This document shows, in pieces, positions 2,026-59,150 of a stretch of DNA of 64,000 bases; positions within the stretch are counted from its first letter, which is position 1; each line of letters opens with the position of its first letter. The position numbers and the translations under genes were made by a program. The stretch is from Moniliella sp. 'wahieum' (taxonomy: Eukaryota). Under the pieces are notes generated by a model, which worked only from the letters and a program-made list of their open reading frames with translations, searched no databases and was not told where the DNA came from. The stretch lies in NCBI GenBank assembly GCA_003971905.1, contig RSEE01000114.1, positions 62,001 to 126,000 on the forward strand, in the 5' to 3' direction.

Positions 2026-2460
2026 GCATGATGCATGATGCACCATGCTGGCGTTGGACGAGGGGCGTTGGACACGGGACGTTGGAAGGGGTTTTGGACG
2101 TTGCGTTTTCGTGTGGACGTTGAATACGTTGAATGTTATTTTGAGAACGCGGCAAGTCGGAACGTGGGCATATGTGACACCATCTTGGTGGAAATCATGT
2201 TTGGGAGTGTGCAGACAAGAGAGAAAGGCGTCTATAATACTGCGAATGATAATCGACATTGTCGATAACGCAAATGATGCGCTCGCGTGTGTGTGATGGT
2301 TGCCATGGCAGTAGAGTGTTGTGGCCACTTGAGTTACTAATAATACTAGTAAAGCGAGTGACTAGTGCTAGTGACATGTGACATGTGACAATAATAGTAG
2401 CAGCCCTGGTCACCGGTCACGCGTCACGCGGTCACGAGGGTCACCTCCGGCGGTCACCCG
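2026..2460. repeat. Cluster of 7-bp-period quasi-palindromic words
   Basis: TGATGCA repeats (about 2026-2042), TTGGACG repeats (2052-2120), TGACTAG/TGACATG (2359-2390), TCACCGG/TCACGCG (2408-2460). Confidence 0.7.
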
Positions 2461-21259: not shown

Positions 21260-23809
21260 GGGGGCAAAAGCGGGGGGCAGAGGAGGCAGGAGGGCAACAG
21301 CCAAGGCCTGGCCGCAGATGGTGGCTGCGGGCGACGCGGCGTCTGATTTCTGATTGCGCTGACGCGTCGGGGGGGGGGGAGGGGAGAGGGCAGAGGCTGC
21401 GCTGTGCTGCCTCGTGCCCAGCCCCCTCTCACATCTCACGTAAGCCACGGCTAGACACGCGCACGTGCGCTGACACTGCCCCCCTGCTCCACGTGCGCTG
21501 TGCTGGCCCTTGTCCTCCCACGCCCCTGTCTGCTTATCGCGTCTCCATTCCGCCCGGCGCGGGGCCTGCTGGCGGAACACCCCCCCTGACGTCACCTGAC
21601 CCTGGCGCCGCCTCTGCCCACTGGAAAAAGCACAGGCCACCCCCATCTGCATCACCTCACACTACTATTACGGACCCCATTCTGGTACCAGTGATTCCAG
21701 CGTGTCCGACGACGTCCCTCGGAGCCAGAAGGGGCCTGGGGTATCAGCGATATCAGCATGTGCGCATGCGCATGCGCTTCATATCAAAGCGCCGCTCATG
21801 GCCCCATCTCCCACGTCTCAAGAGTACAGTTGTGGCGCTGATGGGTCCAGGATGCGCGCACCTCCCTATGGACTAGCTGACGACTAACGGCTGACACCAA
21901 ACCTATACTCATCCTCATCACGCAATGCCATATGCATTGGATACTCGCATTAATCACTGTCACTGTCCGAAGAGTCGTCGCTGCTGCCCCCTCCTCCGAC
22001 AGCGACCACGGCAAGTGTCTTCTTCTTGTCGTGCGTGCTCCACATGTGCACGGCATCGTTCGTTGCAATCCTCTGGGCCACGTCTTTGTTCAGCGCCTTG
22101 GCGCTCGGTTCGTGGGACTTTCAGCTGATTCTCAAGTCCATATATGTGCACGTGAGACGCCCCCGGGATGAACTACTTTCTCGTTTCGTTCCTCCCCGTC
22201 GTGACTGGGCCCTTCTCGTAGTTGCGCATCAATACTTTCTGGCCGTCTTACTCTATCATGCACTTCTTGGTGCAGACGTGCTGAATACTGTGCCCATACC
22301 TTGACAAAGTCCGCGAGCTGGGAACGGCCCAGATCCTTGTCGGTGAGAGATTGTTGTACCACGCCAATCTGGGTCCTTAGCTGCTCAAACTGCGGCAGGG
22401 ACAGCGCCCGGGCTCATCAAAAAGCCCTTCCTCCACAGATCGTGCGTCTCGAATTGGTTCAGTCCGATGATCCCGGCCCTTGTCTTCGGTAAAGCAATTC
22501 CCTTCAGGGATGAGCGAGTGGTGGATGGGCGGCTTCTCACCATTCTTCTCGAACTTGTTCCTGTCGGCGACACAAGAGAGCAGCACAGCAGGTTGGAGGT
22601 CACAGTCCATATTGTAGCCATCTGACATCTGATCGCCGATAATCTGGGTTGGTTCAAGCACAGCACACTCGAACAAGCCCCGCACAATACAGTCGGGCAG
22701 ATGGTCCCTGCGCATGGCACGCGTTCAGAGGGGCACCAACGTCTTGCCTAAAGGCGAGCAGGGGGAAACCCGATTGAGATCACGGACGACTCGCACCCCG
22801 ATTCGACCCCTTCGGACATCCCCCCACCTAAAAAGGAGTCCAGTGCGTAGTGACTAGGCAAGTGACTTGGGACTAATAGTGAGATGCTAGTGATGCGGGA
22901 CGCACTGTCCCCTTTTGTCCTTCTGGGTCTTGCGTCCCAATTCTAGGCTCTTTTCCCCGCCAAGGTCTCCCATCGTACACCCTGCACCCAGCTCCCCCGC
23001 ACCCATCCAGGGCACTCTGTTCCCCGCTCCCAACTCTCCGCGCTCAAAGTCCAACATTCAACAGCCCTCTCCCTTTTCCCCTTCAAACTTATGCTCTCGA
23101 TATGGGTTGGGGGCACATGGATATATGAACTGCAATTTCTCCGTATGCGTCTCTCATAGGAGGTAATACCTAGTCCCTATACCTCGTGCTGATGTCGATG
23201 ATGTCGATGAAGTTCAAGGTAGAGGTTGAACGGGCAAGCTGTGTCTTACGCGCCAGGATATGCGCCCCTACGCTCTCCCATGCTTCATGCCTCCCATGTC
23301 CCTTCCATCAGGGTTGGACGATCTATCAAGCTTGAAGCTTGAAGCTTAAAGCTTTTGAAGCTTGAAAAGCAAAGGCAGAACCATGCGGAGGATGGTGATG
23401 ACCACATTTCGCATGGACCCCTCACCCTTCGCTTCCCCTGGTTCGATTCGTGCCGCCACAGACACGCTTGTTGCCAGCGAAGCTCCAGTAGGAGGGTACA
23501 TACGCCGGCAGCAGCAGTGTTGCATGAGCTAGTGTTGGTGGGTTCTGCGCCAATTAACGCTGTAGCGCGTAGCCACCATTGAACCTTTCAAATCCGAGTT
23601 GCGGCGCAAGCGCACAGACCAGATCATGCAGACGCATACACTGCCCCCTTGCTTGACGGATGCATGGCATCCGATTGGTGTCGCCCGACACATGCGGACA
23701 CTGTCACAGGTCACATGTCATGCATGTCACGGAGGAAGGGTTCTCCTGTGCGTTGGTCGTTTTCCTGCTCCGCCCATAGGACGCAGGCATAAGCCTCTCC
23801 CCTACGGCC

Positions 23810-31283: not shown

Positions 31284-31440
31284 TCCTGTTTTTCCTTGTT
31301 CCGCAGCTTATAATAGCCCCTGGTGGCGACTCACTGTTTGATGTTCCTCTGTAGGCGTTGCTGGTTGGCTTAGACCACCACCGCTACCACTAGTGCGATT
31401 TCATCACCCTCGAGGACCATCTGGACTCCAGATCTCATCA
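31284..31440 (+). repeat. 5' LTR of Ty1/copia element (5'-truncated)
   Basis: About 157 bp, roughly 90% identical by eye to the reverse complement of about 42129-42286. Ends ...GATCTCATCA. Confidence 0.9.
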
Positions 31441-34180
31441 GAGTTACAACTCTTCGCTCATCCAGTGAGCAACGGTGACCCACAATTCCCTTTTCCATCC
31501 CTCACCCTCTCCGTATCCATCCCTTTCCATCGGCGTCTTTTATCAACAATGAGCGCCATTTCACTTCCTACCCCTCAGCTGTCGAACCCGGACTGGGCCG
31601 ACCAGCACCTTCTGTCTCCTTTTCCTAAAGAAGGCATTACCTTCACGCGTGCATCGCAGTTGGCCAACGAACAACTGAGCCAATACCAAGCCCTTTACCA
31701 TATTCTTGAGGATCGCAGACCTTTGGTGGCCAAAAACAATGCGTCTGATTTTCAAACCCGTCTCACATTTATCTCAGGCAAACTATCAGCTCTTGAGCAA
31801 AAGGTCGTGAAAATGGTCGGCGATCCTACTAAGCGACTTCCCAGCGATCCGTCTGTCCAGCCGACTGTCGTGCGTCACTATGACGAGTTGCGTAGTGTGT
31901 TCCACCGCACTTTGATACATTTTTGCGAACCGTTTTGGTTCTCCGCTTCTTCTTCCCAACAATCTTCCGCAACATCGGAACCGGAGGATCCCGTTGCGAC
32001 CCCACGGCCGGTCGCGTCACCTTTGTCTCACGACGAGTTTGTTCATACTCCTGTGGCAACAACGACACATCGCCTCCTCCGATTGACGATGCAATCTTGT
32101 CAAGTTTAAATAATCTTTTCCGTTCAGGCGCATCCCCCGAAGTTCTCGTGAATACAGCCGAGAAACGTTGGGGTACTGACGTGGGCATTGCCGCTGCTAT
32201 GAAGGTTATCGATGATTGCTCGTCCAGAGCACCCACCGGCAATGTTTCGTCCGTGACGCCGCCCCTGCCTTCTAACCCGGAGCCCTTCCCAGCCTTGACC
32301 AAAATTACCGAAGCGTCAACGTTGTGGACAAGTACAAGGTGGGACAAGATTTCTGGCCTTGGGCGGACTTGGTTCTGGGCAGACTTGACGATGCGGTCGC
32401 CGGTGCTCGCGCTTTGATTCAAACTGGAGAAGCTGATCCCCATTACAATCGCTTACTGGATCACAAACTACACGCTCCTCTCTTGGCTCACTTGCACCGC
32501 AATGTTAGCGCGTCTATTCCATATTCTGTTACTAACGGCCTGGCTTCCGTACTTTTCCGTATCCTGTTACAACGTTTCGGTCAATCGTCACCGGCCGAAC
32601 ATTGTGATATTATCCGGCAGCTTCTTGACCTTCGTCTCGGGTCTTCGACAGGATCCACATACGTGGAGCGGCACCGCAGTCTGGTTTACAAACTGGAAGT
32701 GCGTTTGGGTCATCCCTTTCATGATAATGTCCTACGTTCTTTTTTACTCAACGGTCTCCAGGATCCAACGTTTGTGGCATTCACCCCTCACACGAACTAC
32801 GAACAGGTACTGATGTTGGTTTCAAGCCGTCCGGCAGCACGTTCGTCATCGTCTCTTCCGAACAAGCCTTCTGTAACGCAGGGCTCAGGTGGTCGAAAGC
32901 CTTCTCATACCAGTACATCTCAGGGTGGCCGGTCGTCTCGCAAGGGGGGCTCTTCCCAATGGAGTGGGGCACCTGGGTCAGGGTCTGGTCAACGTAGAGG
33001 TGGGACTGTGTCTTAATACGGATCTCAAGGCACCGCCAATTGGACTGCTGCTAACACTGTGGCTCCTGTTCCGGGTTCTTCTGTGGCAGCGTACCCAAAC
33101 GCATCATTTGCCGGAGGACCCCTGCATTTCCCTCCTATTCCTACCAAGGATTCCAGTGCGTCCAGCCTCTCTCCTTCTCAACAGTCTGAATAGGACGGCG
33201 CGGGGAGTACTTCGCCAGCCACCCTCCCTGCGCAACATGATTCGGGCGCGCGCCCGTTTGTCTTCAAGGATAGGAACACATTTACTTCACTACATCGTAG
33301 TCATGCTTCTATAGTCCTTGCAGATGGACGGGTCGTGCAAGACGCTGGCATTGGCACTGTTTCTGTCTATATCCATACCGTAACCCCTGTTCGTTCAACT
33401 CCCTAATTCCTTCTATCCTCCTGTCTCACTTTCCACTCTTGATTTTTACCCACTTTTGTCGACATCTTTTCTCGGTCCCATGCCCAATACTTCCATGATT
33501 ACATGCATGATTCCCGACTCGGACCGCACTCAGCCTCCTCTTGCCCTTGCTCTCGACCACGCGCGAGACGAGGACGCACTCCTTCTTACCACCGATGGTG
33601 TTCCATTGGCGCCCAAGTCCGTGCGGGCTCTCGTCGGCCACCCTGCATTTGATGATGTCCTTGCTGCCTTGCGCGTTGAACTGACGCGTTTCGATTCTCG
33701 CAAGGTGAAGGAGGTGGTGCCCATTCCTCCGGGGGCACGTGTGTTACCCTGTATTTGGGTCCTCAGTACCAAGACGGATGCTGAGGGCCGCTTTGTCAAG
33801 TATCGTGCGCGTTATGTAGTGGGAGGACATCGCCAGCTTCCCGGATCATGGACCAAATCATTTGCTCCCGCGGTTCGCACCTCCGCCGTCAATACTTTGA
33901 TCACCGTCTCAGAGGCGGAAGGGCTCCAGCAGCTCTTTACGGCCGACGTTGAAGCGGCGTACCTGTATGCGGACGTGACCGAAGAAGTCTATGTTCGGCC
34001 GCCTCCCTTTTTCCCAGAAGGGAAAGGCAAGTGTCGTCAGCGGAAACTGAAGAAGAGTCTTTTTATGGTCTCCATCAAAGTGGAGCCAATTTTGGTGACT
34101 GGCTGCGTACTTTCCTTTGTGACCGTCTTAGCTTTAACACTGACGATTTTCTTGTTGCTTGCCGTTCGGGGGACTTACTC
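31284..34180 (+). mobile_element. 5' half of degenerate Ty1/copia LTR retrotransposon (gag, Zn knuckle, protease, N-terminal RT)
   Basis: Gag from ATG 31549 with a UBN2-like segment (ILLQRFG...LLDLRL...LLNGL). Degenerate CCHC knuckle at about 33009-33048. Protease IVLADGRVVQDAGIGTV at 33311-33361. RT CIWV..KTDAEGRFVKYRARYVVGGHRQ..DVEAAYLYA..EEVYVRPP..YGLHQSG..DDFLV. Confidence 0.93.
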
Positions 34181-34669: not shown

Positions 34670-34900
34670 GGAGGAAGAGGAAGGAGAAGAGGAAGAGAAG
34701 AGGAAGAGGAAGAGGAAGAGGAAGAGGAAGAGGAAGAGGAAGAGGAAGAGGAAGAGGAAGAGGAAGAGGAAGAGGAGGAAGAGGAGAGGAAGAGGAAGAG
34801 GAAGAGGAAGAGGAGAGGAAGAGGAAGAGGAAGAGGAAGAGAAGAGGAAGAGGAAGGAAGGGAAGAGGAAGAGGAAGAGGAAGAGGAAGAGGAAGAGGAA
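34670..34900. repeat. Pure polypurine tract, mostly (GAGGAA)n
   Basis: About 230 nt with only A/G on the + strand. Confidence 0.95.
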
Positions 34901-35808: not shown

Positions 35809-38372
35809 TTAGACCAATGCCTCACCAGGCGGTTCATGCGCAAAGACCGATGATGGTCTTCTTCTTCCAGACAGTGTAGGCGGTACCTTCGTTTGTGGCT
35901 TCCAAGTCGCGGGCGCGCGCATTGCTCACCTCGGACGAGCCAATGGCGTAGGCGTCGTTGGGCAACCACAGTTCCCGCATCGGCGTCGTGACGGCCGGGT
36001 GGTCAAACGTGTTGAGGTCTGCCTCCGGGTCGGCAGGAGCCGAGGAAGACGTCGGTTCCTGCCACGGCCGAACGTTCAACGTACTTTTCGTTCGGCGACA
36101 GGTTGCTTCCGGGCGTCAAGAGCGGCTTGGCTTCCTCCGTGGCCGTTGTCGCGCTAGATCCCTTGACCAGCGCCGTAGGCTCGTCCTTGACAAGCGAGAT
36201 GGCAAGCGAAGTGTACAGCGGCTTGAACGAGTCTTGCATAAAGATGTGGAAGCAATGACAATCACACCCAGCACAACGGTAAATGCCCTCAGGAATAGCA
36301 CCTTGCTTCTGGGACGTGTGGCCGTTGGCGTCAGTGTGGGGATATTGCGACAAGAAGAGAGAGCAGCCAAGAGAATGTGCTCGAGGTACAGCGCGGCAAA
36401 CACTTGGTTGATCGCCTTGGGGAAGAACAGACCGCTGGTCTCCGAAGTGGGCTTGCAGTCCCACACGTAAATCGCGTTGTACTTGTACAGCAACCAGTAG
36501 AGGCAGAACGTCACCCACACAAAGCCAGCCGAGATCGGAGCAATGACAGAGTAGCCAATGCCAATGATGGTGATGAGCGAGGTGGCCGGGAAGAGAGTGC
36601 CAAATCCGGGAGCGCCCATGTCGTTCTCAACATGCCACACTTTCCGCGGCGTGGAGGCAAGCAGGAATTTCTTCACGTAGTACATGACCAGAGTCACAAT
36701 TTGCAACATGCCACTGCCAAACCCAGTCAACCCCGTGAGAAGCAGGTAGGAGAGGAAGAAGAAGTGGAAGCCTTGGGAATCGCATCGGCGATGAGAGTGG
36801 GAAACTTGGCGGGGTTCTGAGAAATGGATTTGGCAAACTGGGTGAGCCAGATGCACTACCCGACACGATCGTCATCAAGAGGAAGTTCTGGAGGAACTGG
36901 AAGAGGAAGAAGCGGTCCATAAGCGAAAGTTCAATGCCGGTAGCGGTTGGAATACCCGAGGGCGAGCAAACATCCGCAAGATGGGAGGGAGTAGCATGTT
37001 GAGCACAGCAAGGGCGATCGTAGGGCCAATCGACTGAATGATACCGGTCACAAACACGATGTGGTTAGCCAGTGGAGCCAGGGCACCTCCACGGACAGAC
37101 CCTTAACATTGGAAACAATACCGGTGAAGCCACAGGAATACACCAGAAGAGGCACAGGGCGATCGTGGCAGCCCAGAAGAGCGCCGTGCGAATCTTCTTT
37201 CGTACGGGTCATCGTCAGGTTGGACCAAATCACGTTCTCAGGAGCCATGTCGGCATAGCGACCGGTCATGCGGTAGGGAAGGTGGTAAGGTTGCTGAGAA
37301 ACAGCAATCGAGCGGCGAGCTGCTGGTGGAAAGAATGAAAGCGCTGTTCTCGGGCTTGTAGGTCTTGCGGGGTGTGGAAGTTGTCGTGAGCTTCGTCAAT
37401 CGCTTCATTAAGGCGCACCAGCTCGTCACGCACCACTGAGTGTGTCGACCTTCTTCCCAAAGAGACCAAGCCAGCCAAGCTTGTGGTGGGGGCGCTCCTT
37501 TCTGAGGTAGCGGTCCAGCACATCGAGGGGGACATTGGTGCTTCAGCATCGGTGCCCGACATCTCAACGCCCTCCACTTTACCCTTCTTGATCTTCTTCA
37601 TCACCTTTGCAATTGCCTTGGCCGTTGCGCCTTCAGCTTGTCAAGCACACAGAGCGCTCCGCTTGCAAATCAGGAAGCTTGTCCACGCCACGGTTGATCC
37701 AAATCTTGGCGACGCCACCAGGGAGGTGGTTGTACATCTTGGTCAGCCGCGAGACGGAGAGGATCTCGTTGGGGATACCGGTGATAAGAACGGTACGGGC
37801 CTGGGGCGTAGACGAATGCTTTCGGAAACGAGGAACTCTTGGCGCAGTTTGACAAAGTTGGACGTCTTGCGACGGATCCAGTACAGGGTCCACAGCACAA
37901 AGATCCACTGAACCAGCAGCGGAGCGATGAGACGCAGCTCGCCGTGGTAGGTCTGGGCATGGTGATTGAAGGTGAACTTTTCGAATCCAGCAAAGTCTTT
38001 GGTGTCATTGAAGCCCGTGCCGTAGACAGGCATGAGCACAACGTAACCCAAAAAGAACACGGGGAGGAAACAGATGACCATCATTTCGAGGTACTCGATG
38101 TACATGAATGCGTCGAGGCCTTGCTTGCGCAGAATGTCGTACTTGTCCCATTGATCGTATCGATGAGCCAGCCAAAGAGCGAGGGGCTCTGGCGGGAGTG
38201 CGTTCCGAGTCAGGGCCAAGGAAGGTTTTGGGCGCATACACCACGGGGAAAACGCGACGGAGCAAAAGAAAGCGACGACTTCGATTCCCACAATGACACC
38301 GTTCATAATGATGGCCGACACGACGGTCGCGGTGGACTCGGAGGTGGTGCTGGCAGCGCTGGCGGCGGGCAT
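35809..38372 (-). CDS. OSCA/TMEM63 (CSC1/Rsn1/Phm7-like) calcium-permeable stress-gated channel; heavily frameshifted
   Basis: GLDAFMYIEYL, ARTVLITGIP, SAFILFHQQLAA, MAPENVIWSNL, FFLFQFLQNFL, GTLFPATSLITIIGIGYSVIAP, ETSGLFFPKAINQVF, FDHPAVT..LWLPNDAYAI, C-terminal EPPGEALV*. Confidence 0.9.
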
Positions 38373-39579
38373 GGCGGCGAGGGCGGCAAGGGCGGCGGTT
38401 GGTATAGAGAAGGGGCGAGCGGCGCATCGTGCGCGCAGGCGCACAAGCGGGAGAGGCACGCATCTTACAATGCGAGCCAGGAGGGGGGGGGGAGGTGGTG
38501 GTGGTGGAGAAGGAAGAGGCAATGGTGGGCAGAGAAGAAGAAGACGGCAGGTGGTGGGGGGGTCTATGAGAGAGGCGAGGCGGGTGCCCTGAAGGCAGGA
38601 GCGCGAGCCGGCTGCAGGCACACCCGCTGTGCGCCTCCGGCCGATACCCCGTAGACGTTGGGCATGCCGAATTCACACAGGGCCCGGCGCGGCGCCAGTG
38701 TGGCTGCCCCGACGTCAATGCACAGCATGCGGCCGCAGGCAGCACACCAGTGTCGGCAGGCCTGGGCGCGCGCAAGCAGTGCCACGGCCTGTGCTGCATG
38801 TGACGGGCATCGCGCGCTACCCGAGGCTGGCGCGCCGTGCGGTGTTCCACGCTGCGTTGGGAAGATCCTGGGGGGGCGGCACAGTGGCGTGTGCTCCATC
38901 ACCAACACGCTCGCAGGCGCACCGCCTGCCACGGGGGGCTGTGTGTGGCCACACCGCTCCCCATCATGGCATCATGCGTCATGTCACACGATCTGGCCTC
39001 TGCAGGAAACCGTCTGCGATGCAGTCGGTCAGTCAGTTTTTCGGCTGCCCACGCGGCACTGGGCCACGGCAGGGATCCAGGTACTGGTCACCGGGTTACT
39101 CCCCAAGGTGGAAATTTGACAGACACCAGAGACACCGTCGGAGTCCTGCAGGACACCGGCTCCAGCCACATTGTCCGCCGGAAGGCACGTCCTCCAGCCT
39201 CCCAGCCCACAGCACGCGTGGGAGAGAGGGGCGCACACGGCGAGGGAGCCTCGGCCGTTGGGTGTCACATGCGTAGCAGCAGCGCAGTGCCCACGGGCGG
39301 TGTGCTGCACGTGCTTGGGGCGACTGGTGGATGCAGGGGGTGCGGCGCAGCAGCGCGCACGGGGGAACGAAGGGTGCTTCCGTGCCCCCAGGGGCTGCGC
39401 TGCTGTGTCCACGTCCCCTCCGAAGCGCCCCGTGCTGCGACACGGCCTGGCGCCTCCTGGCCACCGCTCTGGCCCAACGCCACCCGTGGCCACTGCTATC
39501 ATGCCAACGGTGGCAGGGCGCTGCCGACCTCTGAGGCGCTTACCCCCTTGGTAGGAATGCAGACTCCAACCAGGCGTGT

Positions 39580-41720
39580 CTAGCTAGCGCTCCCCTGCGC
39601 TAGCCTGCGCTAGCCGGTGCACATTCCCCTCTGGGATGTCGAACGCGTCACTTGTGGCGATCATACGTGATGTGAATGTGACTTGTGAATGTGACTAGTG
39701 CTTCCATAGCAATGATGCATGATGCGACGCATGATGGTGTGACGCGTTTGACGCCGCTCTTTCAGATGTGCCCTGGTACTGATGCATGATGCATGATGCA
39801 TGATGTGCCAATCTCGCTGCAAAAGCAAGGTACAGAGCGACCATCGATCACGCATGTACATCATGCATCATGTGTCACGCGTCATTTACGTGCCTTGCGC
39901 TTGAAGCTTGAAGCTCTTGAAGCTTGAAGCTTGACTAGTAGCTTGAAGACTAACGCGCTGAGCTGAAGCCAAGCTCGACCCGGACGCTCAGGCGCTCAGG
40001 TGACGGCCTCGAGCATCGAGCGTGTCCAACGGGGCTCTGACGCAGGCTGGTGCCGGTGCTGGTGCCGGGCGCCAATTTATTCACTACCTTGAAGCTTGAA
40101 GCTTGACTAGCTTGTCTAGTGAGTGACTCACGCACGCGCTGAAATGTGAAAAGACAATGGATGATCGGCGATCGATGATCGCCGTGGGTGCGGGTTGGAC
40201 GTTTGGACGTTTGGACGTTGGTGCGGCAGTCGCTCGGCCGTCCTAGGCAGCCGCTGTGCCGTCTGAAATTTTATACGGACACCAGGCCCAAGCGGGAATG
40301 GATGATGCATGATGATGAGTATTCGGCTTCAAGCGGACAGCTCGGATCGGATGGATGTGGCAGTGGTAGAGCAGGAAGCTTGCAAGTCCATTCGATCGCA
40401 TCCACCCCAGTCAGGCATTGAAATTGTACGTTGGACCGATGTGATGTATGTGACATGGGATGCGGGTGGCTGCAAGGTAAGTGTGATATTCCGTGCTTCC
40501 TGGGGGTGCCAGTGAGCCAACTAGTCAAGCTTCAAGCTAGTGATGTCATAAGCGCGTGATGCACGTGATTCCTGATTGGCCTGATTTTGATTTCACGCTC
40601 CTCGCTCTGGTCCTCGGTCCATATCCATGTTCTCTCCCTGCGGCGTAGCGCCTAGTCCTTGTCCACATTTTAAGCTTTCAGCTTCACTCGGTTGAAATTT
40701 GAAAGGGACACCAGGGCAGTAGCAGGCAGTCACGCTTAGCACTGCCATCCGAGATCCGAGCCCTGTTGGCCTTGCGATGGTGCCGAGGGCCTCGGTTGCG
40801 GCTGTCCGCTCTGTGGCCTACCAAGTTAGACAGCAGACGCACTGCCCCCATCATGCATCATGCATCATGCATCTTTTATGCTACCGACCGCGCCACGCGT
40901 CAGAAGTCACGCATCGATCATCCCAGTGAGCTCGATCCAAACAGATATGAGACCTACCAAGGGGCTCCCATGTGCATGATGCATGATGTATGATGCATGA
41001 CGCGTGATGCGTGGCGCGTTACGCATGGGTGGCTGAACCAACCCGACCGATGCAGAAGCAGTACTCCACAAACCAAAAACCAAAAAGCAAGGGGCATGTG
41101 GCCGTTGGACGTTGGACGCCGGAGTGAGCCAGTGAGCGAGTGAGGATCTGGCTACGAGCAACTGACTCATCCTATGGCAACTGAGTACCCCGAGATAGAT
41201 ACGATGTACGTGTATTTTGCGCACGCCTGCTCCGGCGCCGAAAAGCTCTCGGGGCACAGCACGTCCACAGCACTGCCACAGCGCATTGGACGTTGGCCGC
41301 GGACGACGGAGAATCGGATCGAATAGTGCTAGTGATCTAGTGATCGATGATCACTTGATGATCGAGACGATCGCGGGATCAGCTTTTTTGGCCCCGAGAC
41401 GCGTGAATAATGCGTTAACGCGTCAACGCGCCAAAATGCCAAAACGCCAAAACGCCTCAACGTCCTCAACCTTAAAGGTTTTCTCAATTATAATTATCCG
41501 TCAACGTATCAACGTTCAACGTGTTCAACGCGTCAAGTCGTTAACGTCTCTACATCAACTAAGTACCACAACTCTCCATCTTTTCATATCACCAGCATCT
41601 GGGGTCGTTTGCAGTGCTAAGGCTATTAACGTTTAACCCTCGGCGTGTGGGGTATGGGGCTGACGCTCTGAAGCTTGAGGAGCATGACATGCATGAAGGG
41701 TCAAGTGAACGTTGAACGTC
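39580..41720. repeat. Dense array of TGA-[palindromic 4-mer] heptamer words upstream of the OSCA gene
   Basis: TGATGCA x3 (39780-39805), TGAAGCT runs (39900-39947, 40090-40105), TGGACGT (40195-40220), TGATCGA (41335-41372), TAACGCG and TCAACGT (41410-41530). Confidence 0.8.
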
Positions 41721-42128
41721 ATCAAGAACATGAAAACCACTTTAACTTTATTTTTCCTTTGCTTTCATCGTCTCTACACATAATGATGACGAGACGAGAC
41801 GAGACGAGAGGCGAGAGAGTGGGGTCTGAACCCCGCCCCGGAGGATCATCGACCAGATCTAGAGACCTGTGGGAGGCGAACAAGGCAGGGGAAGAAGTGG
41901 TGGTGATGCAAGCAGGGAAAGGAAGCCCGGAGGCACAACAGAAGGAAGCCCGGAGGCACAACAGAATGGGGGGAAAAAGGGAGGCGGAGAACGGGCCGCA
42001 CAATTTTGTAGTAGTACTATACGACAGACTGAGTATTGAGCCGAGAACAGTCCGTCATTGAGCACCTTCATTATCATTCCCTGAGTGGCGAAAGGTTTGT
42101 TTGTATATCTGTAATGGATCTGGCGCCC

Positions 42129-42370
42129 TGATGAGATCTGGAGTCCAGATGGTCCTCGAGGGTGATGCAATCGCACTAGGGTGGTGGTGGGGGTGGTCTA
42201 AGCCAACCAGCAACGCCTACAGAGGAACATCAAGCAGCGAGTCGCCACCGGGGGCTATAAGCTGCGGAACAAGGAAAAAACAGGAGAGAAAAACAACGGA
42301 ACTCCTATAGGTCTGAGGAGGAAAACTGAAGGGACATTGGCCAAAGCACGAGCCACCTGATGACTCAACA
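42129..42370 (-). repeat. Complete 3' LTR of Ty1/copia element (242 bp, TG...CA)
   Basis: Minus strand reads TGTTGAGTCA...GATCTCATCA, immediately preceded by a G-rich PPT (G7 at 42371-42377). Confidence 0.92.
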
Positions 42371-45626: not shown

Positions 45627-46682
45627 TCAGAATTCCCGTTTGACCATCGGCTTGGATTCGCTCTTGACAACCGGTTTGGACTCGGATTTGACCATCGGCT
45701 TGGATTCGCGTTTGAAGGCTGGCTTCGACTCGTGCATGGCAGAAGAATGAGAACGCCACCGATGGGAGCCGGAGCCACCACGTCCACCACGTCCGCGCCC
45801 GCTGTCCTCGCCCACGGCCCCTTCCCCATCCACTCCCACTCCCACTCCCACTCCCACTCCCACTCCCACTCCCACTTCCACTTCCACTCCCACCTCCCCA
45901 CTGGTTACCCCCCCGCCTCCGCCTCCAAAGGAGCCATAAGATTGAGCACGCCCGCTGCCATAGGACGACGTGGTTCGCATGGGAGCCAAAGACTGAGTAC
46001 GTGCGCCGCCATACGAAGACGCTCCGCCATACGACCCTCCGCCATACGACCCTCCGCCATACGACCCTCCGCCACCATACGATGACCCACCACCACCATA
46101 CGAAGACCTGCCGCCACCGTACGAACCACCACCGCCATACGAAGACCCACCGCCGCCATACGACGATGCGCCGCGCCCCCAGCTTCCTCGCTGTCGGCCC
46201 ATCCACTCTTCAAACGTTTCGTAATCGTAGGCAGAGGCCTCGAAGTCGTAGTCGTCCTCTGCACTGTCCATAAAGTCGCTCTCGAGGTAATCCAGGCGAT
46301 ACGCGCCGGCGTTGGGGAGCGGCTGGGCACGGGGGAGGTCGGCCGCTGGCTCCGGTTTGGCGGGAACCAGGGCGGATGCGAGTTCTGGTTTCGCAGAAAC
46401 AGGTCCGGTTGTGGGCTCTTGCTTGGCGGGAGGGGGGTTCGGCGCGCGCGTGCTCACAGATACACGCGTAATTTCCACTTCGCTGTCAGAGTCTTCCAGC
46501 GAGTGCGAGACGGGGTGCGACTCGGGTTTGACGTTGGCCTTGGCCTTGGCCTTGGCCTTGTCGTCGGAGTCCGAGTCGGAGTCGGAGTTGAGGGTGATGA
46601 CCTCGGCCTTGGGTGGTACCGGAGCAGGGGCTGAGGCGGAGGATATGAGCGGAGACGAGGTCAGCTCCTGCACGTTGTCCAT
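45627..46682 (-). CDS. Orphan low-complexity protein with SIM-like motifs, SYGG/RGG repeats and tandem psi-KxE motifs
   Basis: 351-codon ORF with ATG preceded by a pyrimidine-rich leader. Contains EVITLNSDSDSD, SDSEVEITRV, (SSYGGGG)n, GRGRGGRGG and a C-terminal 24-nt repeat encoding FKRE/VKSE/VKSE/VKRE. Confidence 0.7.
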   Translation of the reverse strand: MDNVQELTSSPLISSASAPAPVPPKAEVITLNSDSDSDSDDKAKAKAKANVKPESHPVSHSLEDSDSEVEITRVSVSTRAPNPPPAKQEPTTGPVSAKPELASALVPAKPEPAADLPRAQPLPNAGAYRLDYLESDFMDSAEDDYDFEASAYDYETFEEWMGRQRGSWGRGASSYGGGGSSYGGGGSYGGGRSSYGGGGSSYGGGGSYGGGSYGGGSYGGASSYGGARTQSLAPMRTTSSYGSGRAQSYGSFGGGGGGVTSGEVGVEVEVGVGVGVGVGVGVGVDGEGAVGEDSGRGRGGRGGSGSHRWRSHSSAMHESKPAFKRESKPMVKSESKPVVKSESKPMVKREF

Positions 46683-47131
46683 GGTCGGAGCGAGGGAGGG
46701 GAAGAGGGTGGCGGGAAAGGTTGGTGTAGTTGGGTTAATGACCGGAGCGACGCGCCTCGCGGAAGCGCATTTGCCCTGGGCTACGCGAAGGGGGGGCTGC
46801 GTAAGCGCACAGGCGGCACGTGACGTGTGATGCGGCTAGGGCGCGTGTTGCACCGAGTCGCGCGAGCGTCTTGTCGGTGCAACAAGACCGACCCGATCCG
46901 GGCCGAGGTGCGGCACTCGTGCCGTGCCACAGCGCGCGGATGTGGGCGTCGATACCGATAACCGACACACGATGCTCAACAATCGCAGGACAATTGAAAT
47001 TCTTCTCGCACCTGTCGAGGTCTCCAGACTCAACTGCCTCCAGCTCGGCTCTCTTTTTTGCCGGCCTCGCCCCTCTGCCCCGCTTGCCCGCCACCACGCC
47101 CCGCCCCTCCTAGGCCTGTCTCCTCCGAACC

Positions 47132-50436: not shown

Positions 50437-50542
50437 GGTCGGATGGTGTAGTTGGTCATCACGTACGCTTCACATTCTGAAGCTCCAGGCCTCAGTATTG
50501 CTGGGACGCGTAAGGTCCCCGGTTCGATCCCGGGTTCGACCA
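50437..50542 (+). tRNA. tRNA-Val(CAC) with 32-nt canonical intron (50475-50506)
   Basis: Acceptor GGTCGGA/TTCGACC, A box TGGTGTAGTTGG, anticodon arm TACGC-TT-CAC-A^C-GCGTA, B box GGTTCGATCCC, oligo-T terminator at 50545. Confidence 0.95.
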
Positions 50543-50766: not shown

Positions 50767-50838
50767 TGGACGAACAGGGAATTGAACCCCGGACCTCATG
50801 CATGCTAAGCAAGCGCTCTACCCCTGAGCTATCCGCCC
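50767..50838 (-). tRNA. tRNA-Ala(AGC)
   Basis: GGGCGGATAGCTCAGGGGTAGAGCGCTTGCTTAGCATGCATGAGGTCCGGGGTTCAATTCCCTGTTCGTCCA. G3:U70 identity pair present; T-rich terminator follows. Confidence 0.93.
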
Positions 50839-56219: not shown

Positions 56220-59150
56220 CGTTCAGCAACATGGAACGTTGAACTCAATGTTCAAGACGTTCAAGCTTCAAAAGTTGAACAGCGTATTCCGAAGTCGAAT
56301 TAGCGCGTGTTGCCACTGCGGGGATTTTAGCCCGCTTGAATGTCGTGAACGGCGTAGACATTATATACTGCGTACTTGAACGTTCGAACCACCCTACGTA
56401 TGCCCGCAACCCAGGCGAAACGACATGGACAGCTGAGGCGCTGAGAAGCGCCTCCCGTCAAATTTAAACGCAAAAAAGCAGGGTAACGCGTAACGCCCGT
56501 TTACTAAGGCCGGCGAGCTGAGACTCAGTACTCGTACTCACAGCAGTGCTGCGCGAGGCGCGACCCCTTTTTTTTCTATCCGCATGTGTTTTGCCCTCAG
56601 CGTTCGCAGTTCACAGTTCACACTGAAGTTTAGCCCATTAGATAGCGCCTGAGCGCCTGAACACTCTCTCTTGGCACTCTGCACGCGCCAAAAGTTCAGC
56701 TGAGTAGCTCCAGAACTACCACCCCCACCATCGCTTCCCCCCACTACCAAGGGAGACCTGACCTCTCAGACCCCCCTCAGGCCTCGCTGAGGGCTGAGGC
56801 GCTGAGGATCCTCTGCGCGTTCTAGTGCTCTCTCTTTCAGCTGCAGTAGCACCATTGCCTTGTCCTCTTTTCGAACCCGGGCTGGACGAATAAAACTCAG
56901 TACCCAATGGACTGAGTTGGATATTGAATGCTCAAACATAGAACGGACGTATCGGCTGATGCTGCGAGGGAGGGTGTGAATCTCACTTGGAAGGTTGAGG
57001 TCAACGAATGTCTACAGCTGCCAAAAGGCGGTTGGCGCGAGGGTTTGAGAAGTTGTTTGAAAGAGCACCTCTTTAATCGACCATCTGCCCCCTTCTGTCC
57101 CACCGCCTTCATTTGCATAATGGACGCATGGGTCTGGGCTAGAGGACGAGATAGACATGTCGATATGGCTTGGTCATGATGACCAACCGGTGCCAACAAC
57201 AACGACCGAAGGCCACTGGACGCGCGCGCACGCAGATGGAATATGTGGATGCACGCGCGGGAGCCGTCTTTGCGCTTCGCGCTTAACGATTAACGAGTAA
57301 CGCGTAACGATTAACGTGGGACTAATGATTAATGAGGAATGACATCACATGTCACAGGCAAGCCCCCCAGTCCGCCTGCCTTGCTCGCCAGCCATACACT
57401 GTCGACGGCAGCGCGGGTGGCTTCTCAGCGATCTCGGCACGGAGCGGTCAGCCTGAGTCGGCCGCTGCTGGCAAGCAGGAGGTGTGGATGTGATCGCGTG
57501 GTCATCGAGGTCACCGAGTTGGTGGCCATCGGCATATATCATCCATCATTGATCAGACTTGATCGAATCCCCCGGCCATCCTGCATCCTGCCTGTTCTGT
57601 GTCGCGCGGATCTCAGAAGAGGCACTCAGCTGAGTCAGTACTCAGTACATAGTACTCTACTCACGCACTCAGTACTCACGCCTTAGGGGCCTCTCTGCCA
57701 TTCAGCGCGGCTGAGCGCTGCGGCACTGTCTGCGCCATATAGGGGAGACGGGAGGAGCGGCCGCTCGCTCAGGCTCAGCGCGCAGTCGCTCGCCGGCACC
57801 GGCTCTGTTTTGTGCACTGCGATGGAAGCTACAAGATTGGAGCTTGGACAGGGACTAGACTACGCCTTCGGGACGTTTGGACGGGCAACGTGCAACGGGC
57901 ATCCCAGACTGGAGGCTTGGCTGCCCCTGTGCTGGCTTGGCCTCAGCGCTGAGCACCTCCCGACCGGGAAGCACCAAGTACTCTACCTGTACTTACTACA
58001 CCCGGCGAACCGATGAGGTCAACGTCTTGGACGTTTTGAACGCTCCCCCAGTCCCTTCCCTTGCCTTTTTGTGGTTCGGCCTTGTCTGAGAATGCTGTGG
58101 TGTTTGCGCATCTACAAAAGCCTCGCGGCATCGCTCCTCGGGGGGTCATCCGGTCATCGGTCGTCGGTCCCACCATGCATCATGATGCATGACTGCATGA
58201 CTGGTCAATAGGGCAGTCAACGTCACATCATCGCAATCGACAATCCATAACCGCATCAGGTAACGATAAGCGTTGCAGCTTGTAGGTCGTCGAGGTCGTC
58301 GAGGTCATCACTTACCACCCTCACCACTCCCTCACTAATGACAGCCACTCCTTGACATCGACTATCGAGCCGGTTGGTGTCCATGTCACCCATCTCATGC
58401 ACCGTGCATCATCCGTCGATAATGGAGTCATTGGCTCAGTGCTATAACGCGCTGACGAGGCTCAGCAGCGCTCATCTGCAAATCAGTGTCATGCGTTCTG
58501 AGGGGAAGAGGGGGGGGGGATACGTAGATAGATGATCGAAGGGATGCATCTTTGAAGTTTGAAGCTTGAAGCTTGAATCTCTTGAATCTTGATGGCAATT
58601 GGGGGGAGTCGCTAGCTAAGATCTGAGAGCAACCGTCGATCCGGAAGCCAGCGCCTTCCGACCCTGCTGAGCGCGAGACCCTGACGCGCTGAGAAGCTTG
58701 AGAAGCTTGAGCGCTTGAGCGGCAGGCGGAGAGGGTGCAGGGCAGACGAGACCGGGCAAAGCGACCGTGTGGCCGGGGCGAGTCACTAGTCAAGCTTCAA
58801 GCCTCGCGCATCAAGCTAGTCAGCCTGCTGACAACGGTGGTGGGGGGGCGAGATCACATATGCACATGCCGCACAGGGGCGGACGGCGGGAGGAAGAGTT
58901 TGCCTGGTGTTGTCATGCAATCCATGCGCTGAGCGCTCATCAACGCATCAACATTGGCGCTCAGCCCGAGCGCTGAGCTCATTGATCTCTGATCTCATCG
59001 ATCTCATCGCTCACCTGCTCATCCATCGCACTTGATTCTTGGTACTCAGTGCCGGCAGTAACTCCGCACTCACAGTGAGCGCTGAGTGTACACTCAGCAC
59101 CGAGGCCCTCAGCCGCTCATCATCGATCATCGCCTGTCTATCGCCATCAG
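56220..59150. repeat. Dense heptamer quasi-palindrome words upstream of PMA1
   Basis: TGAACGT/TCAAGCT (56220-56280), TCAGTAC (56520-56540, 57625-57680), TAACGCG (57282-57315), TGAAGCT (58555-58580), TGAGCGC (58925-58980), GATCTCATC/ATCGAT (58980-59010). Confidence 0.75.

Follow-up and report, generated by a model that had tools for sequence, protein, structure and literature searches.

What kind of process leaves short tandem runs that differ in sequence from one place to the next while their symmetry and period persist? The question is raised by a block of intergenic DNA at 39713-41719 in the 64-kb stretch analyzed here (the window). The host is a smut-like fungus, and the runs are dotted through its non-coding DNA. 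An earlier note had read them as TGA or TCA triplets alternating with self-complementary 4-mers at a 7-bp period and had called this block the densest. The block does hold 16 of the 57 in-phase groups in 3.3% of the window.

The heptamer rule in the window

We counted T[GC]A-N4-T[GC]A across the 64-kb window and compared the counts with block-wise Markov simulations of the same DNA (orders 1, 3 and 5). Palindromic spacers made up 65 of the 139 cases (46.8%, versus 6.25% under uniform use), while the simulations predicted 3.9, 4.6 and 19.2 for the three orders. Non-palindromic spacers were close to chance, at 74 observed versus 64, 54 and 52. There was nothing at other spacer lengths, where 17 of 57 spacers (length 2), 0 of 98 (length 6) and 2 of 73 (length 8) were palindromic. 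The spacer comparison that the earlier note had suggested, run here on the window, thus shows enrichment limited to palindromic 4-mers at a spacer length of 4.

Exact repeats gave the same picture. The window contains 54 exact period-7 runs of at least 14 bp, and 31 of them are symmetric except for the center base; simulated sequence had on average 0.36-0.42 symmetric and 3.4-5.4 non-symmetric runs. The hexamer palindrome has the form A....T in 30 of the 31 symmetric runs, and the spacer base is G or C in 26 and A or T in 5. No palindrome excess was seen among exact runs of period 5, 6, 8 or 9 in the window; it belongs to period 7 alone. The rule can be put more simply as an ANNNNT hexamer palindrome plus one base, repeated. 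We confirmed that the pattern is real and far above chance expectation; the runs lie where the earlier note had seen them, and both the spacer and the period-7 statistics uphold its rule.

Is the symmetry of the core all or none? Among loci in which two T-N-A triplets with the same N enclose four bases, both core pairs were complementary at 62 (2.2 expected) and neither pair at 21 (19.7 expected). A single complementary pair occurred 15 and 21 times, depending on the pair, versus 6 expected each. Half-palindromic cores thus exceed expectation, as mutational decay would give.

The cores are many and unevenly used. Thirteen distinct cores occur in the window, led by AGCT (11 loci), TGCA (11) and CATG (9) (chi-square 48, 15 df), and GATC, ATAT and TATA are found at no locus in it. 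All 11 cores listed in the earlier note are present, joined by a few AATT and TTAA; its TAA/TTA linkers also occur, and its TGG variant lies at 41099-41118. The note was right that this is no ordinary microsatellite, since symmetry, period and the T-N-A linker stay constant from locus to locus and the unit does not, and right again that no single fixed transcription factor site is involved.

Direct duplicates and their junctions

The direct form of the word, TGA..TGA plus TCA..TCA, occurs 59 times in the window versus about 2 expected. The inverted form that the earlier note had included in its rule showed no such enrichment: TGA-palindrome-TCA was seen twice (1.0-1.2 expected) and TCA-palindrome-TGA four times (0.8-1.1 expected), 6 versus about 2 in all. 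The middle base N is identical in both linkers at the 62 palindromic-core loci. Outside tandem runs in the window, neither ANNNNT (183 versus 173) nor NNTSANN (134 versus 121) was enriched. Words outside the tandem context are at chance, which suggests that the word itself is under no selection.

Phase is strict. An ANNNNT palindrome is followed by another at exactly 7 bp in 22 cases, and the two cores differ in 9 of these, versus about 1 expected by our estimate; no such neighbor lies at 6 or 8 bp in the window. Mixed-core neighbors are in phase and carry the same N. Among 72 chains, 61 have one core, 9 have two and 2 have three, and no heptamer array exceeds 3.7 copies, in a window whose other repeats run to 10-40. 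These numbers point to many births and little growth.

Most loci span 10-14 bp, and run lengths peak at exactly 14 and 12 bp. Thirty loci are exact 14-bp heptamer duplicates, and 23 of them contain T-N-A. In 10 of these the triplet is centered, at unit positions 3-5 (15% expected, P = 9.5e-4), and in the other 13 it is off-center; four of the 10 centered duplicates have non-palindromic units. The junction falls just before the T in 7 of the 23, and in no exact 14-bp duplicate does it fall inside T-N-A. Run ends concentrate at two points, the edge of the linker and the center of the core, with a sharp fall past the latter. The commonest class, TNAXY-Y'X'-TNAXY, accounts for 13 loci.

Could the runs be products of snap-back synthesis, as the earlier note had offered among its options? 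Snap-back should yield perfect inverted palindromes (TGA..TCA), which show no enrichment. The signature is a direct 7-bp duplication with a palindromic junction; a mutational footprint is still a live option and the nearest of those the note had listed, but its snap-back form did not hold up.

Folding offers little help to the note's cruciform or DNA-shape option. The predicted array fold is a 5-bp stem with a T-N-A triloop and G.G or C.C mismatches every 7 nt. Typical arrays fold at -3.4 to -5.3 kcal/mol, no better than dinucleotide shuffles (z of -0.5 to -0.8); only two longer AAGCTT composites stand apart, with z about -2.2 and -2.5.

Location of the arrays and recurrent words

The arrays sit in lower-GC intergenic DNA, and 41 of the 57 in-phase groups fall in three stretches totaling about 9.3 kb. 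All three are long 5' or divergent intergenic regions upstream of genes. No group overlaps Pfam-aligned coding sequence or the copia reverse transcriptase, in keeping with the rarity in coding and copia sequence that the earlier note had judged by eye. Its Helitron was not confirmed: the Pfam scan of the listed window ORFs of at least 110 aa (239 queries, some duplicate, from 249 ORFs) returned no Helitron or helicase family. The block contains no match to known RNA families; the only such matches are two tRNAs near 50.4-50.8 kb, outside it. The main features are as follows, with strand given for the gene.

36119..38672, minus strand: CSC1/RSN1-like channel gene (RSN1_TM, PHM7_cyt, RSN1_7TM); with the block upstream of its 5' end
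39712..39725: ATGCAT+G in exactly two copies (a period-7 run of 14 bp)
39780..39805: (TGA.TGCA) x3.7, the longest pure array, with a GTAC core in phase before it
39859..39884: TCA.TGCA x2 (the C-form of the TGA.TGCA unit), then TCA.CGCG-TCA; inverted partner of the array at 39780-39806, 51 nt apart
39899..39939: AAGCTT+G arrays ending in phase with ACTAGT, with a 16-bp higher-order duplication at 39900-39931; one copy of a recurrent 18-mer
40088..40111: AAGCTT+G x2.7, then ACTAG; second 18-mer copy (1 mismatch)
40302..40314: a lone TGA.TGCA-TGA word whose core is partial (run of 13 bp)
40520..40538: mixed-core chain ACTAGT-C-AAGCTT-C-AAGCT, carrying the third 18-mer copy, inverted
40849..40873: (TCA.TGCA) x3.6
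40973..41027: composite one-phase array with linkers TGA/TGG/TTA and cores in the order TGCA, TGCA, TGTA, TGCA, CGCG, TGCG, CGCG, CGCA
41341..41352: TGA.TCGA-TGA word, with CTAG in phase before it
41509..41522: TCA.ACGT x2 among clustered TCAACG words spaced 7-9 bp apart
41706..41719: TGA.ACGT x2
2026..2430 (outside the block): ATGCAT+G, ACATGT+G x2.9 and an ACCGGT-C-ACGCGT-C mixed chain
23326..23366 (outside the block): AAGCTT+G/A array lying between Maf1 and MTHFR, two divergent genes
58559..58802 (outside the block): AAGCTT+G x2.7 plus the fourth 18-mer copy (ACTAGT-C-AAGCTT-C-AAGC), in the 5 kb separating the SDH1 gene from that of the P-type ATPase

The 18-mer AAGCTT-G-AAGCTT-G-ACTAGT thus occurs at 4 loci versus 0.04 expected, and its copies have nothing in common beyond about 20 nt and no flank homology. 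Two 10-mers are also found repeatedly in distinct places, TGATGCATGA at 10 loci and TGAAGCTTGA at 9. A related word, TTGGACGT, stands alongside AACGTT-G arrays both in the window and in one metagenome contig (L053).

Several simple sequence origins were tried and set aside. The block is not a large inverted duplication, because only the arrays align within it (score 50 versus a shuffle maximum of 28, 25-nt match). Nor are the arrays carried by a dispersed repeat or MITE, since self-BLAST gave no shared flanks and the 18-mer copies are unlike beyond the limit given above. Decay of CpG, which could turn CGCG into TGCA or CATG, can be only a minor contributor to the cores: AGCT and CTAG cannot be derived in this way, and CpG observed/expected is 0.85-0.97. 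Some neighboring cores, such as those at 40973-41027, do suit CpG decay. Finally, a 3-bp target duplication plus four element-end bases fails as the main model; 13 cores would need more than 10 element families, and the predicted 10-bp runs are not those at which lengths peak.

Is the rule a companion of the TGATGCA repeat wherever that repeat occurs? Our comparison set comprised 405,946 bp around (TGATGCA)3 at 119 metagenome loci. In these flanks, heptamer runs with other cores were symmetric in 19 cases and non-symmetric in 146, or 11.5% of 165, about equal to our calculated figure of roughly 11% for random heptamers. The window had a symmetric share of 49-57% (22 of 45 other-core runs, 31 of 54 of all runs). 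We conclude that the rule is particular to this genome and absent around the same repeat in the metagenome loci. Three metagenome contigs (L039, L046 and L053) have a few similar two-unit arrays, too few to call. Neither a description of the rule nor the analogy that the earlier note had drawn to Ustilago ATTCACG heptamers was found in the literature covered, which takes in few subscription journals.

Origin of the arrays and comparison with known systems

The arrays look more like scars of DNA cutting and repair, as in transposon excision, than like a regulatory code or a set of protein-binding words. We think it probable that the heptamer rule is a mutational scar of some kind. A narrower reading is tentative, at a probability of roughly 0.4: the arrays are footprints of staggered breaks or transposon excisions, that is, 7-bp duplications at NN-T-N-A-NN with a hairpin-type palindromic junction. 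Here we infer the enzyme, the hairpin step and neutrality. A recurrent, site-selective process would duplicate 7 bp with T-N-A at mid-site (NN-T-N-A-NN), and its scars would accumulate, the junction of two copies falling at the center of the four-letter core (XY|Y'X'). The most likely source would be a cut-and-paste transposon, or a nuclease akin to one, whose target cut is staggered by 7 bp and which departs in the manner of hAT, Transib and Mutator elements, via hairpins formed on the flanks. If the hairpins opened off-center, bases complementary to the end of the flank would be added, leaving a zero-loop palindrome at the junction. With a symmetric duplicated heptamer, the two opened ends would be cohesive and could be joined without loss. 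Each scar would double the local number of T-N-A targets, so that repeat visits would lengthen arrays by 7 bp, start in-phase cores at their edges and concentrate scars in a few intergenic regions.

Parts of this scheme have precedents. According to passages of PMC5499845, hAT, Transib, MULE and RAG systems excise through flanking-DNA hairpins, and end joining leaves footprints; passages of PMC12730594 describe 7-bp target duplications in Basidiomycota, in hAT7 families (Puccinia, Melampsora) and in Kyakuja (Laccaria). The TNAXY-Y'X'-TNAXY class is the product expected from one retained 2-nt hairpin addition. The palindromic core of the 62 loci and the run ends at its center are compatible with hairpin opening but are no proof of it.

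Other observations count against the footprint reading: the skewed core use (chi-square 48), the T-N-A that is centered in only 10 of 23 duplicates, and the virtual absence of products that keep both hairpin additions, since two palindromes between T-N-A at 11-bp spacing were seen once in the window. A full 4-bp palindrome that is nearly invariant, when known footprints vary, would need very regular hairpin opening or a strong cohesive-end bias, both hypothetical. The 18-mer at four loci without flank homology hints at sequence-specific constraint. As for a resident cut-and-paste element, Pfam scans of the window gave copia reverse transcriptase only. Terminal inverted repeats with flanking duplications of 3, 5, 7, 8 or 9 bp were about as frequent in the window as estimated for chance (for example, 2 at 7 bp), and no resident copy flanked by a matching target duplication lies in the 64-kb window.

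Could the cell's own replication or repair errors suffice? Self-pairing units might stabilize slipped or flap intermediates (for example, hairpin flaps resistant to flap endonuclease), so that symmetric heptamers would be duplicated far more often with no transposon involved. Such slippage would explain why the excess is confined to symmetric units that can form a 5-bp stem with a T-N-A triloop, why the arrays are tandem and scarce in coding DNA, and why there are higher-order duplications such as the 16-bp unit. However, the array hairpins are weak, no more stable than those of shuffles, and most loci are first duplications (the 61 one-core chains), although one 7-bp odd palindrome by itself is unable to fold. 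Slippage also needs flanking microhomology and so predicts runs longer than 14 bp, not peaks at exactly 14 and 12 bp. It leaves unexplained the A..T outer pair in 30 of 31 runs, where G.C-closed stems would be stabler, and the restriction to period 7 with mixed cores in phase. Arrays of at most 3.7 copies, in a window where other repeats reach 40, lack a long copy-number tail, strong clustering is unexpected from a uniform error process, and the flanks of the same repeat in the metagenome are unlike the window (11.5% versus 49-57% symmetric). We regard slippage as unlikely. The same weakness of folding bears on a structural signal (small cruciforms, nucleosome exclusion or positioning, or origin marks), which we consider very improbable. 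In its favor, the runs occupy intergenic DNA of lower GC and are self-complementary over almost their whole length, but typical folds have z of only -0.5 to -0.8, the AAGCTT composites alone reaching about -2.2 to -2.5; loci of 10-14 bp are in our judgement too short to extrude; and perfect palindromes, which would fold better, are unenriched.

Selection on cis-regulatory arrays is rather unlikely in our view, though several observations speak for it. The arrays would be homotypic site clusters, bound either by several dimeric factors or by a single factor reading T-N-A triplets 7 bp apart, upstream of an OPT transporter, the CSC1-like channel and a P-type ATPase. The three dense regions are upstream of genes, so promoter function fits too; TGATGCATGA and TGAAGCTTGA recur at 10 and 9 loci, the 18-mer composite is present four times without flank homology, core use is skewed, and TTGGACGT accompanies AACGTT-G arrays in both the window and contig L053. 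But isolated words are unenriched, and real sites normally occur singly too. No protein could check whether an arbitrary spacer is self-complementary, yet between the same T-N-A pairs, spacers that are not palindromic occur exactly at chance. Inverted half-sites are at chance as well, 13 different cores are involved, and by our tally G-form and C-form linkers have no orientation bias relative to the flanking genes. The earlier note's dimer on T[G/C]A half-sites 4 bp apart falters on the same chance-level counts of inverted half-sites, non-palindromic spacers and isolated words. A doubtful variant joins duplication to function: a lineage-specific enzyme, such as a domesticated hAT-like nuclease, would repeatedly and on purpose insert palindrome-plus-one heptamers at T-N-A in the long promoters of regulated genes, the arrays being a tunable, orientation-free regulatory or chromatin code readable only by 7-bp phase and local self-complementarity. 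An assembly or base-calling artefact is barely credible, given that the pattern is restricted to non-coding DNA, shows normal mutational decay (half-palindromic cores 15 and 21 versus 6 expected) and involves many different cores; we know of no base-calling error that inserts phased heptamers.

If the footprint reading is true, visits by a transposon or nuclease have left an unusually readable fossil record in this fungus, in which each scar gives the target (NN-T-N-A-NN), the stagger (7 bp) and, through its hairpin-type palindromic junction, the end chemistry. Such scars would seed and extend microsatellite-like arrays that form a noticeable part of the promoter DNA, giving mobile elements a concrete means of reshaping regulatory regions even after departure. 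If instead the arrays prove conserved or functional, they would be a class of cis-element defined by symmetry and phase rather than sequence, of which we found no example in the literature. Either way, the ratio of palindromic to non-palindromic tetramers between identical T-N-A triplets is a simple genome-wide statistic for smut fungi and their relatives.

How do the arrays compare with known systems? Yeast microsatellites and unstable promoter tandem repeats are short tandem units, intergenic or in promoters and depleted in coding sequence, and the arrays share these traits. They differ from microsatellites in that the unit varies by locus, copies number at most 3.7, the period is 7 only, and flanks of the same repeat elsewhere are without the rule. 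The palindromic microsatellite-like repeats of Fusarium mitochondria, linked to indels and proposed to be mobile in passages of PMC7218506, are likewise fungal and palindromic in organization, but those passages describe larger, optional mitochondrial elements with no 7-bp rule of T-N-A plus tetramer.

Tc1/mariner footprints resemble the arrays in being a short, fixed, near-palindromic word per excision site, made of the target duplication and a few bases. The canonical footprint is the target TA, 2-3 end bases and TA; the bases come from the transposon ends, and one family makes one word. The 13 different cores found here speak for a core templated by local flanking sequence rather than by the end of an element. 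The symmetric T/A-flanked center seen here resembles the hAT target pattern, nTnnnnAn, and local hopping of transposons leads to clustering like that of the arrays.

Known footprints of the hAT type vary, whereas the palindromic junction in the window is almost invariant; arrays of 2-4 units and mixed-core chains arising from footprints were not found in the literature covered. As in the arrays, hAT/Transib/Mutator-type excision leaves behind a direct duplication of target-site length, with a palindrome centered on the copy junction (flank hairpins, palindromic "P" additions), in the accounts that passages of PMC5499845 and PMC12730594 give. With basidiomycete hAT7 and Kyakuja, for which the passages of PMC12730594 document no T-N-A preference, the likeness rests on length: the duplication is 7 bp, as it is here.

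A seven-base rule in direct tandem arrays

The earlier note had proposed a shared grammar of tandem heptamers, each a T-N-A linker plus a self-complementary 4-mer core, and had named enrichment of palindromic cores at spacer length 4 as its support. We observed exactly this enrichment in the window. Palindromic spacers made up 65 of the 139 T[GC]A-N_L-T[GC]A words at L=4, 17 of 57 at L=2, 0 of 98 at L=6 and 2 of 73 at L=8; the excess was limited to L=4. Block-wise Markov simulation predicted 3.9 (order 1) or 4.6 (order 3) palindromic spacers at L=4, while the 74 non-palindromic spacers compared with 64 or 54. Likewise, 31 of 54 exact period-7 runs (at least two copies) were symmetric except for the centre base, where simulations gave 0.4 symmetric and 3.4-5.4 non-symmetric runs. 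No symmetric-run excess was found at periods 5, 6, 8 or 9 in the window. The runs were seen both in the raw sequence and in Tandem Repeats Finder output, and we regard an artefact as next to negligible.

If a sequence has an odd period and is its own reverse complement, one symmetry centre lies between two bases and the other on a single base. Hence, "T-S-A plus tetramer palindrome" is identical to "hexamer palindrome plus one base". The hexamer was of the form A....T in 30 of the 31 symmetric runs, and the extra base was G or C in 26. From one ANNNNT palindrome to the next, a distance of exactly 7 bp occurred 22 times and distances of 6 or 8 bp never; hexamers of the classes C..G, G..C and T..A lacked such a 7-bp neighbour peak in the window. 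Different cores occurred in 9 of these 22 neighbour pairs (about 1 by chance, estimated from hexamer density), and the middle base stayed constant along mixed chains (e.g., TCA.CCGG-TCA.CGCG, TCA.CTAG-TCA.AGCT). The unit thus changes while symmetry and period persist, as had been claimed: this is a grammar, not a single repeated word.

Could a dimeric factor read T[G/C]A half-sites, as the earlier note suggested, in inverted arrangement? Direct linkers (TGA..TGA and TCA..TCA) numbered 59 versus about 2 expected, while inverted linkers were not in excess in the window (TGA..TCA 2, TCA..TGA 4, versus about 1 each). With period-7 runs masked, isolated ANNNNT hexamers (183 versus 173) and NNTSANN heptamers (134 versus 121) were at expectation. 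We conclude that the signal exists in tandem context only. The proposal fails, since linkers are direct and both non-palindromic spacers and isolated words are at chance.

Between identical T-N-A pairs 4 bp apart, both core pairs were complementary in 62 cases (2.2 expected), one pair in 15 and 21 (6 expected each) and neither in 21 (19.7 expected). Here, a palindromic core is close to obligatory. Core use by loci was uneven (AGCT 11, TGCA 11, CATG 9; GATC, ATAT and TATA 0; chi-square 48 with 15 df, taking local T-N-A-XY frequencies as background), and certain 10-mers were repeated at 9-10 loci. An 18-mer (AAGCTT-G-AAGCTT-G-ACTAGT minus its first two bases) occurred at four loci, with 0.04 expected.

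Copies of the 18-mer
39922-39939
40094-40111
40520-40537, minus strand
58785-58802, minus strand

Homology among these copies ends at about 20 nt, and we rejected a dispersed repeat as the carrier of the arrays. Another family of words, (T)TGGACGT(T), forms 7- and 8-bp tandem runs (2050-2134, 40195-40219, 41099-41118, 41286-41296) and resembles the T-G-A plus ACGT unit with T-G-G in place of T-G-A. TCAACG(C/T) and CGCCAAAA words cluster at 41412-41545 with variable spacing of 7-9 bp, looser than the strict rule.

As a control, we searched public metagenome contigs for (TGATGCA)3, three copies of the most frequent heptamer, and obtained at least 119 loci (405,946 bp). Among the matches listed, nearby runs with other cores comprised 19 symmetric and 146 non-symmetric (11.5% of 165; about 11% is calculated for random heptamers), versus 22 of 45 symmetric in the window. 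In the same listed matches, identical T-N-A pairs with a non-TGCA core numbered 41 palindromic and 452 non-palindromic, versus 51 and 57 in the window. Hence, the seed repeat is a common microsatellite elsewhere, and what characterises this genome is the shared grammar. Near the seed repeat, three of the loci (L039, L046, L053) hold a small number of ANNNNT+1 arrays of two units with other cores (AGCGCT, AACGTT, ATCGAT); these contigs may come from fungi in which the grammar is weaker. In L053, the (T)TGGACGT(T) word adjoins an AACGTT-G array.

Gene context and distribution of the arrays

The window comes from the nuclear genome of a basidiomycete that stands close to smut fungi. Its SDH1 fragment shares 76-78% identity with proteins from Ustilaginomycotina (Testicularia, Pseudozyma, Violaceomyces, Thecaphora, Ustilago) and 93% with one further public protein; the MTHFR fragment likewise indicates Basidiomycota.

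Genes identified by Pfam scans of long ORFs in the window
6.8-9.1 kb, plus, OPT transporter
minus, Trm112
12.7-16.2 kb, plus, CRM1
minus, glutamate-cysteine ligase
minus, Maf1
plus, MTHFR
plus, Arp2/3 p34
33.4-34.4 kb, copia-type RT
36.1-38.7 kb, minus, CSC1/RSN1-like channel
minus, E2 enzyme
plus, mitochondrial carrier
51.6-54.1 kb, minus, SDH1
about 59-62.5 kb, plus, P-type ATPase

Two tRNA matches lie in the interval that separates the mitochondrial carrier gene from SDH1: 50767-50838 (minus), the only one called by ARAGORN (tRNA-Ala, AGC), and the longer 50437-50542 (plus), which may contain an intron. A long ORF without Pfam match (45630-46835, minus) is made of 15-, 21- and 60-bp tandem repeats (46004-46174; units e.g. 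CCACCATACGA) and may encode a repetitive Pro/Tyr/Gly-rich protein. A 161-bp inverted repeat of 92% identity (31284-31441 and 42128-42285) encloses the copia-like region together with the CSC1-like gene and the block of heptamers; its arms could be fragments of LTRs or of solo LTRs, or the termini of some larger rearrangement. The block as a large inverted duplication was rejected on self-comparison.

Array statistics cover the 64-kb window. The 57 in-phase array groups concentrate in three regions: the block at 39.58-41.72 kb, situated upstream of the CSC1-like gene (16 groups), 1.6-5.9 kb, upstream of OPT (13), and 56.2-59.1 kb, where the SDH1 and ATPase genes diverge (12). The noted rarity of arrays in coding and copia sequence was confirmed: none of the 57 falls inside Pfam-aligned stretches or the copia RT region, and four (26859, 45057, 59076, 59120) lie within long ORFs, outside the aligned parts.

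Origin of the arrays

At palindromic loci, the distribution of run lengths has its maxima at 12 and 14 bp. Run ends, folded to one side, accumulate at the T-N-A edge (40) and at the core centre two bases on (39), with a drop to 8 beyond it. TNAXY-Y'X'-TNAXY, with 13 loci, is the most frequent class; chains hold one core (61), two (9) or three (2). In the 30 exact two-copy duplicates, where phase is unambiguous, T-N-A is present in 23. It occupies unit positions 3-5 in 10 of these (expected 15%, P = 9.5e-4), four of the ten being non-palindromic units, and no junction lies inside T-N-A among the 23. Together, the array features point to a process making direct 7-bp duplications at T-N-A-centred sites, with a zero-loop palindrome at the junction.

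Hairpin-aided slippage could use the predicted fold of pure arrays (a 5-bp stem with a T-N-A triloop, -3.4 to -5.3 kcal/mol), but we think it rather unlikely. The longest heptamer array has 3.7 units, versus 10-40 copies for other repeats in the window, and an array of some 40 (GAGGAA) units (34671-34900, directly downstream from the copia RT fragment) indicates that slippage-type repeats can grow long here, unlike the palindromic heptamers. The suggested cruciform signal is weak: compared with shuffles, pure arrays had z values between -0.5 and -0.8, and no stretches but two AAGCTT composites reached -2.2 and -2.5. A structural signal is very improbable. Snap-back template switching, also suggested, would yield perfect inverted palindromes, and none are in excess. 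CpG decay connects some neighbouring cores, yet CpG is hardly depleted (observed/expected 0.85-0.97). Arrays selected in promoters are an unlikely explanation. Skewed core use and the recurring 10-mers and 18-mer hint at sequence-specific constraint. Our tally of in-phase groups gave no orientation bias of TGA versus TCA linkers relative to neighbour genes.

We favour mutational scars of some kind and, among specific mechanisms, excision footprints. Complementarity has no known generic reader other than base pairing, and the known route from an arbitrary XY to a loop-less palindrome is off-centre opening of a hairpin end that is covalently closed. Cut-and-paste elements of the hAT, Transib and Mutator groups are described as excising via hairpins on flanking DNA, with end joining leaving footprints (PMC5499845), and 7-bp target duplications are described in Basidiomycota for hAT7 families and Kyakuja (PMC12730594). 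An excision footprint would begin with a direct 7-bp duplication at a site centred on T-N-A. One retained 2-nt hairpin addition would give TNAXY-Y'X'-TNAXY; a symmetric target would make the ends cohesive, and their joining would give a clean duplicate of 14 bp. If the duplicated T-N-A were used again, arrays would lengthen by 7 bp and, at an array edge, a new core would begin in phase with the middle base unchanged. Local hopping would produce clusters.

Against this footprint model, T-N-A is centred in only 10 of the 23 duplicates holding it, and the same core skew and recurring words hint at sequence-specific constraint. Known excision footprints vary more than the palindromic junctions of the window do. 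Pfam scans of ORFs and a terminal-inverted-repeat scan found no element of the required kind in the window, nor were products keeping both hairpin additions found there. On these grounds, we put the probability of a mutational scar at about 0.6 and hold hairpin-opening excision, as the specific mechanism, tentatively, at somewhat less than even odds.

No description of the heptamer grammar was found in the literature searched. By class, the finding belongs with footprints or microsatellite-like repeats, and it could become something more unusual if conservation or function were shown.
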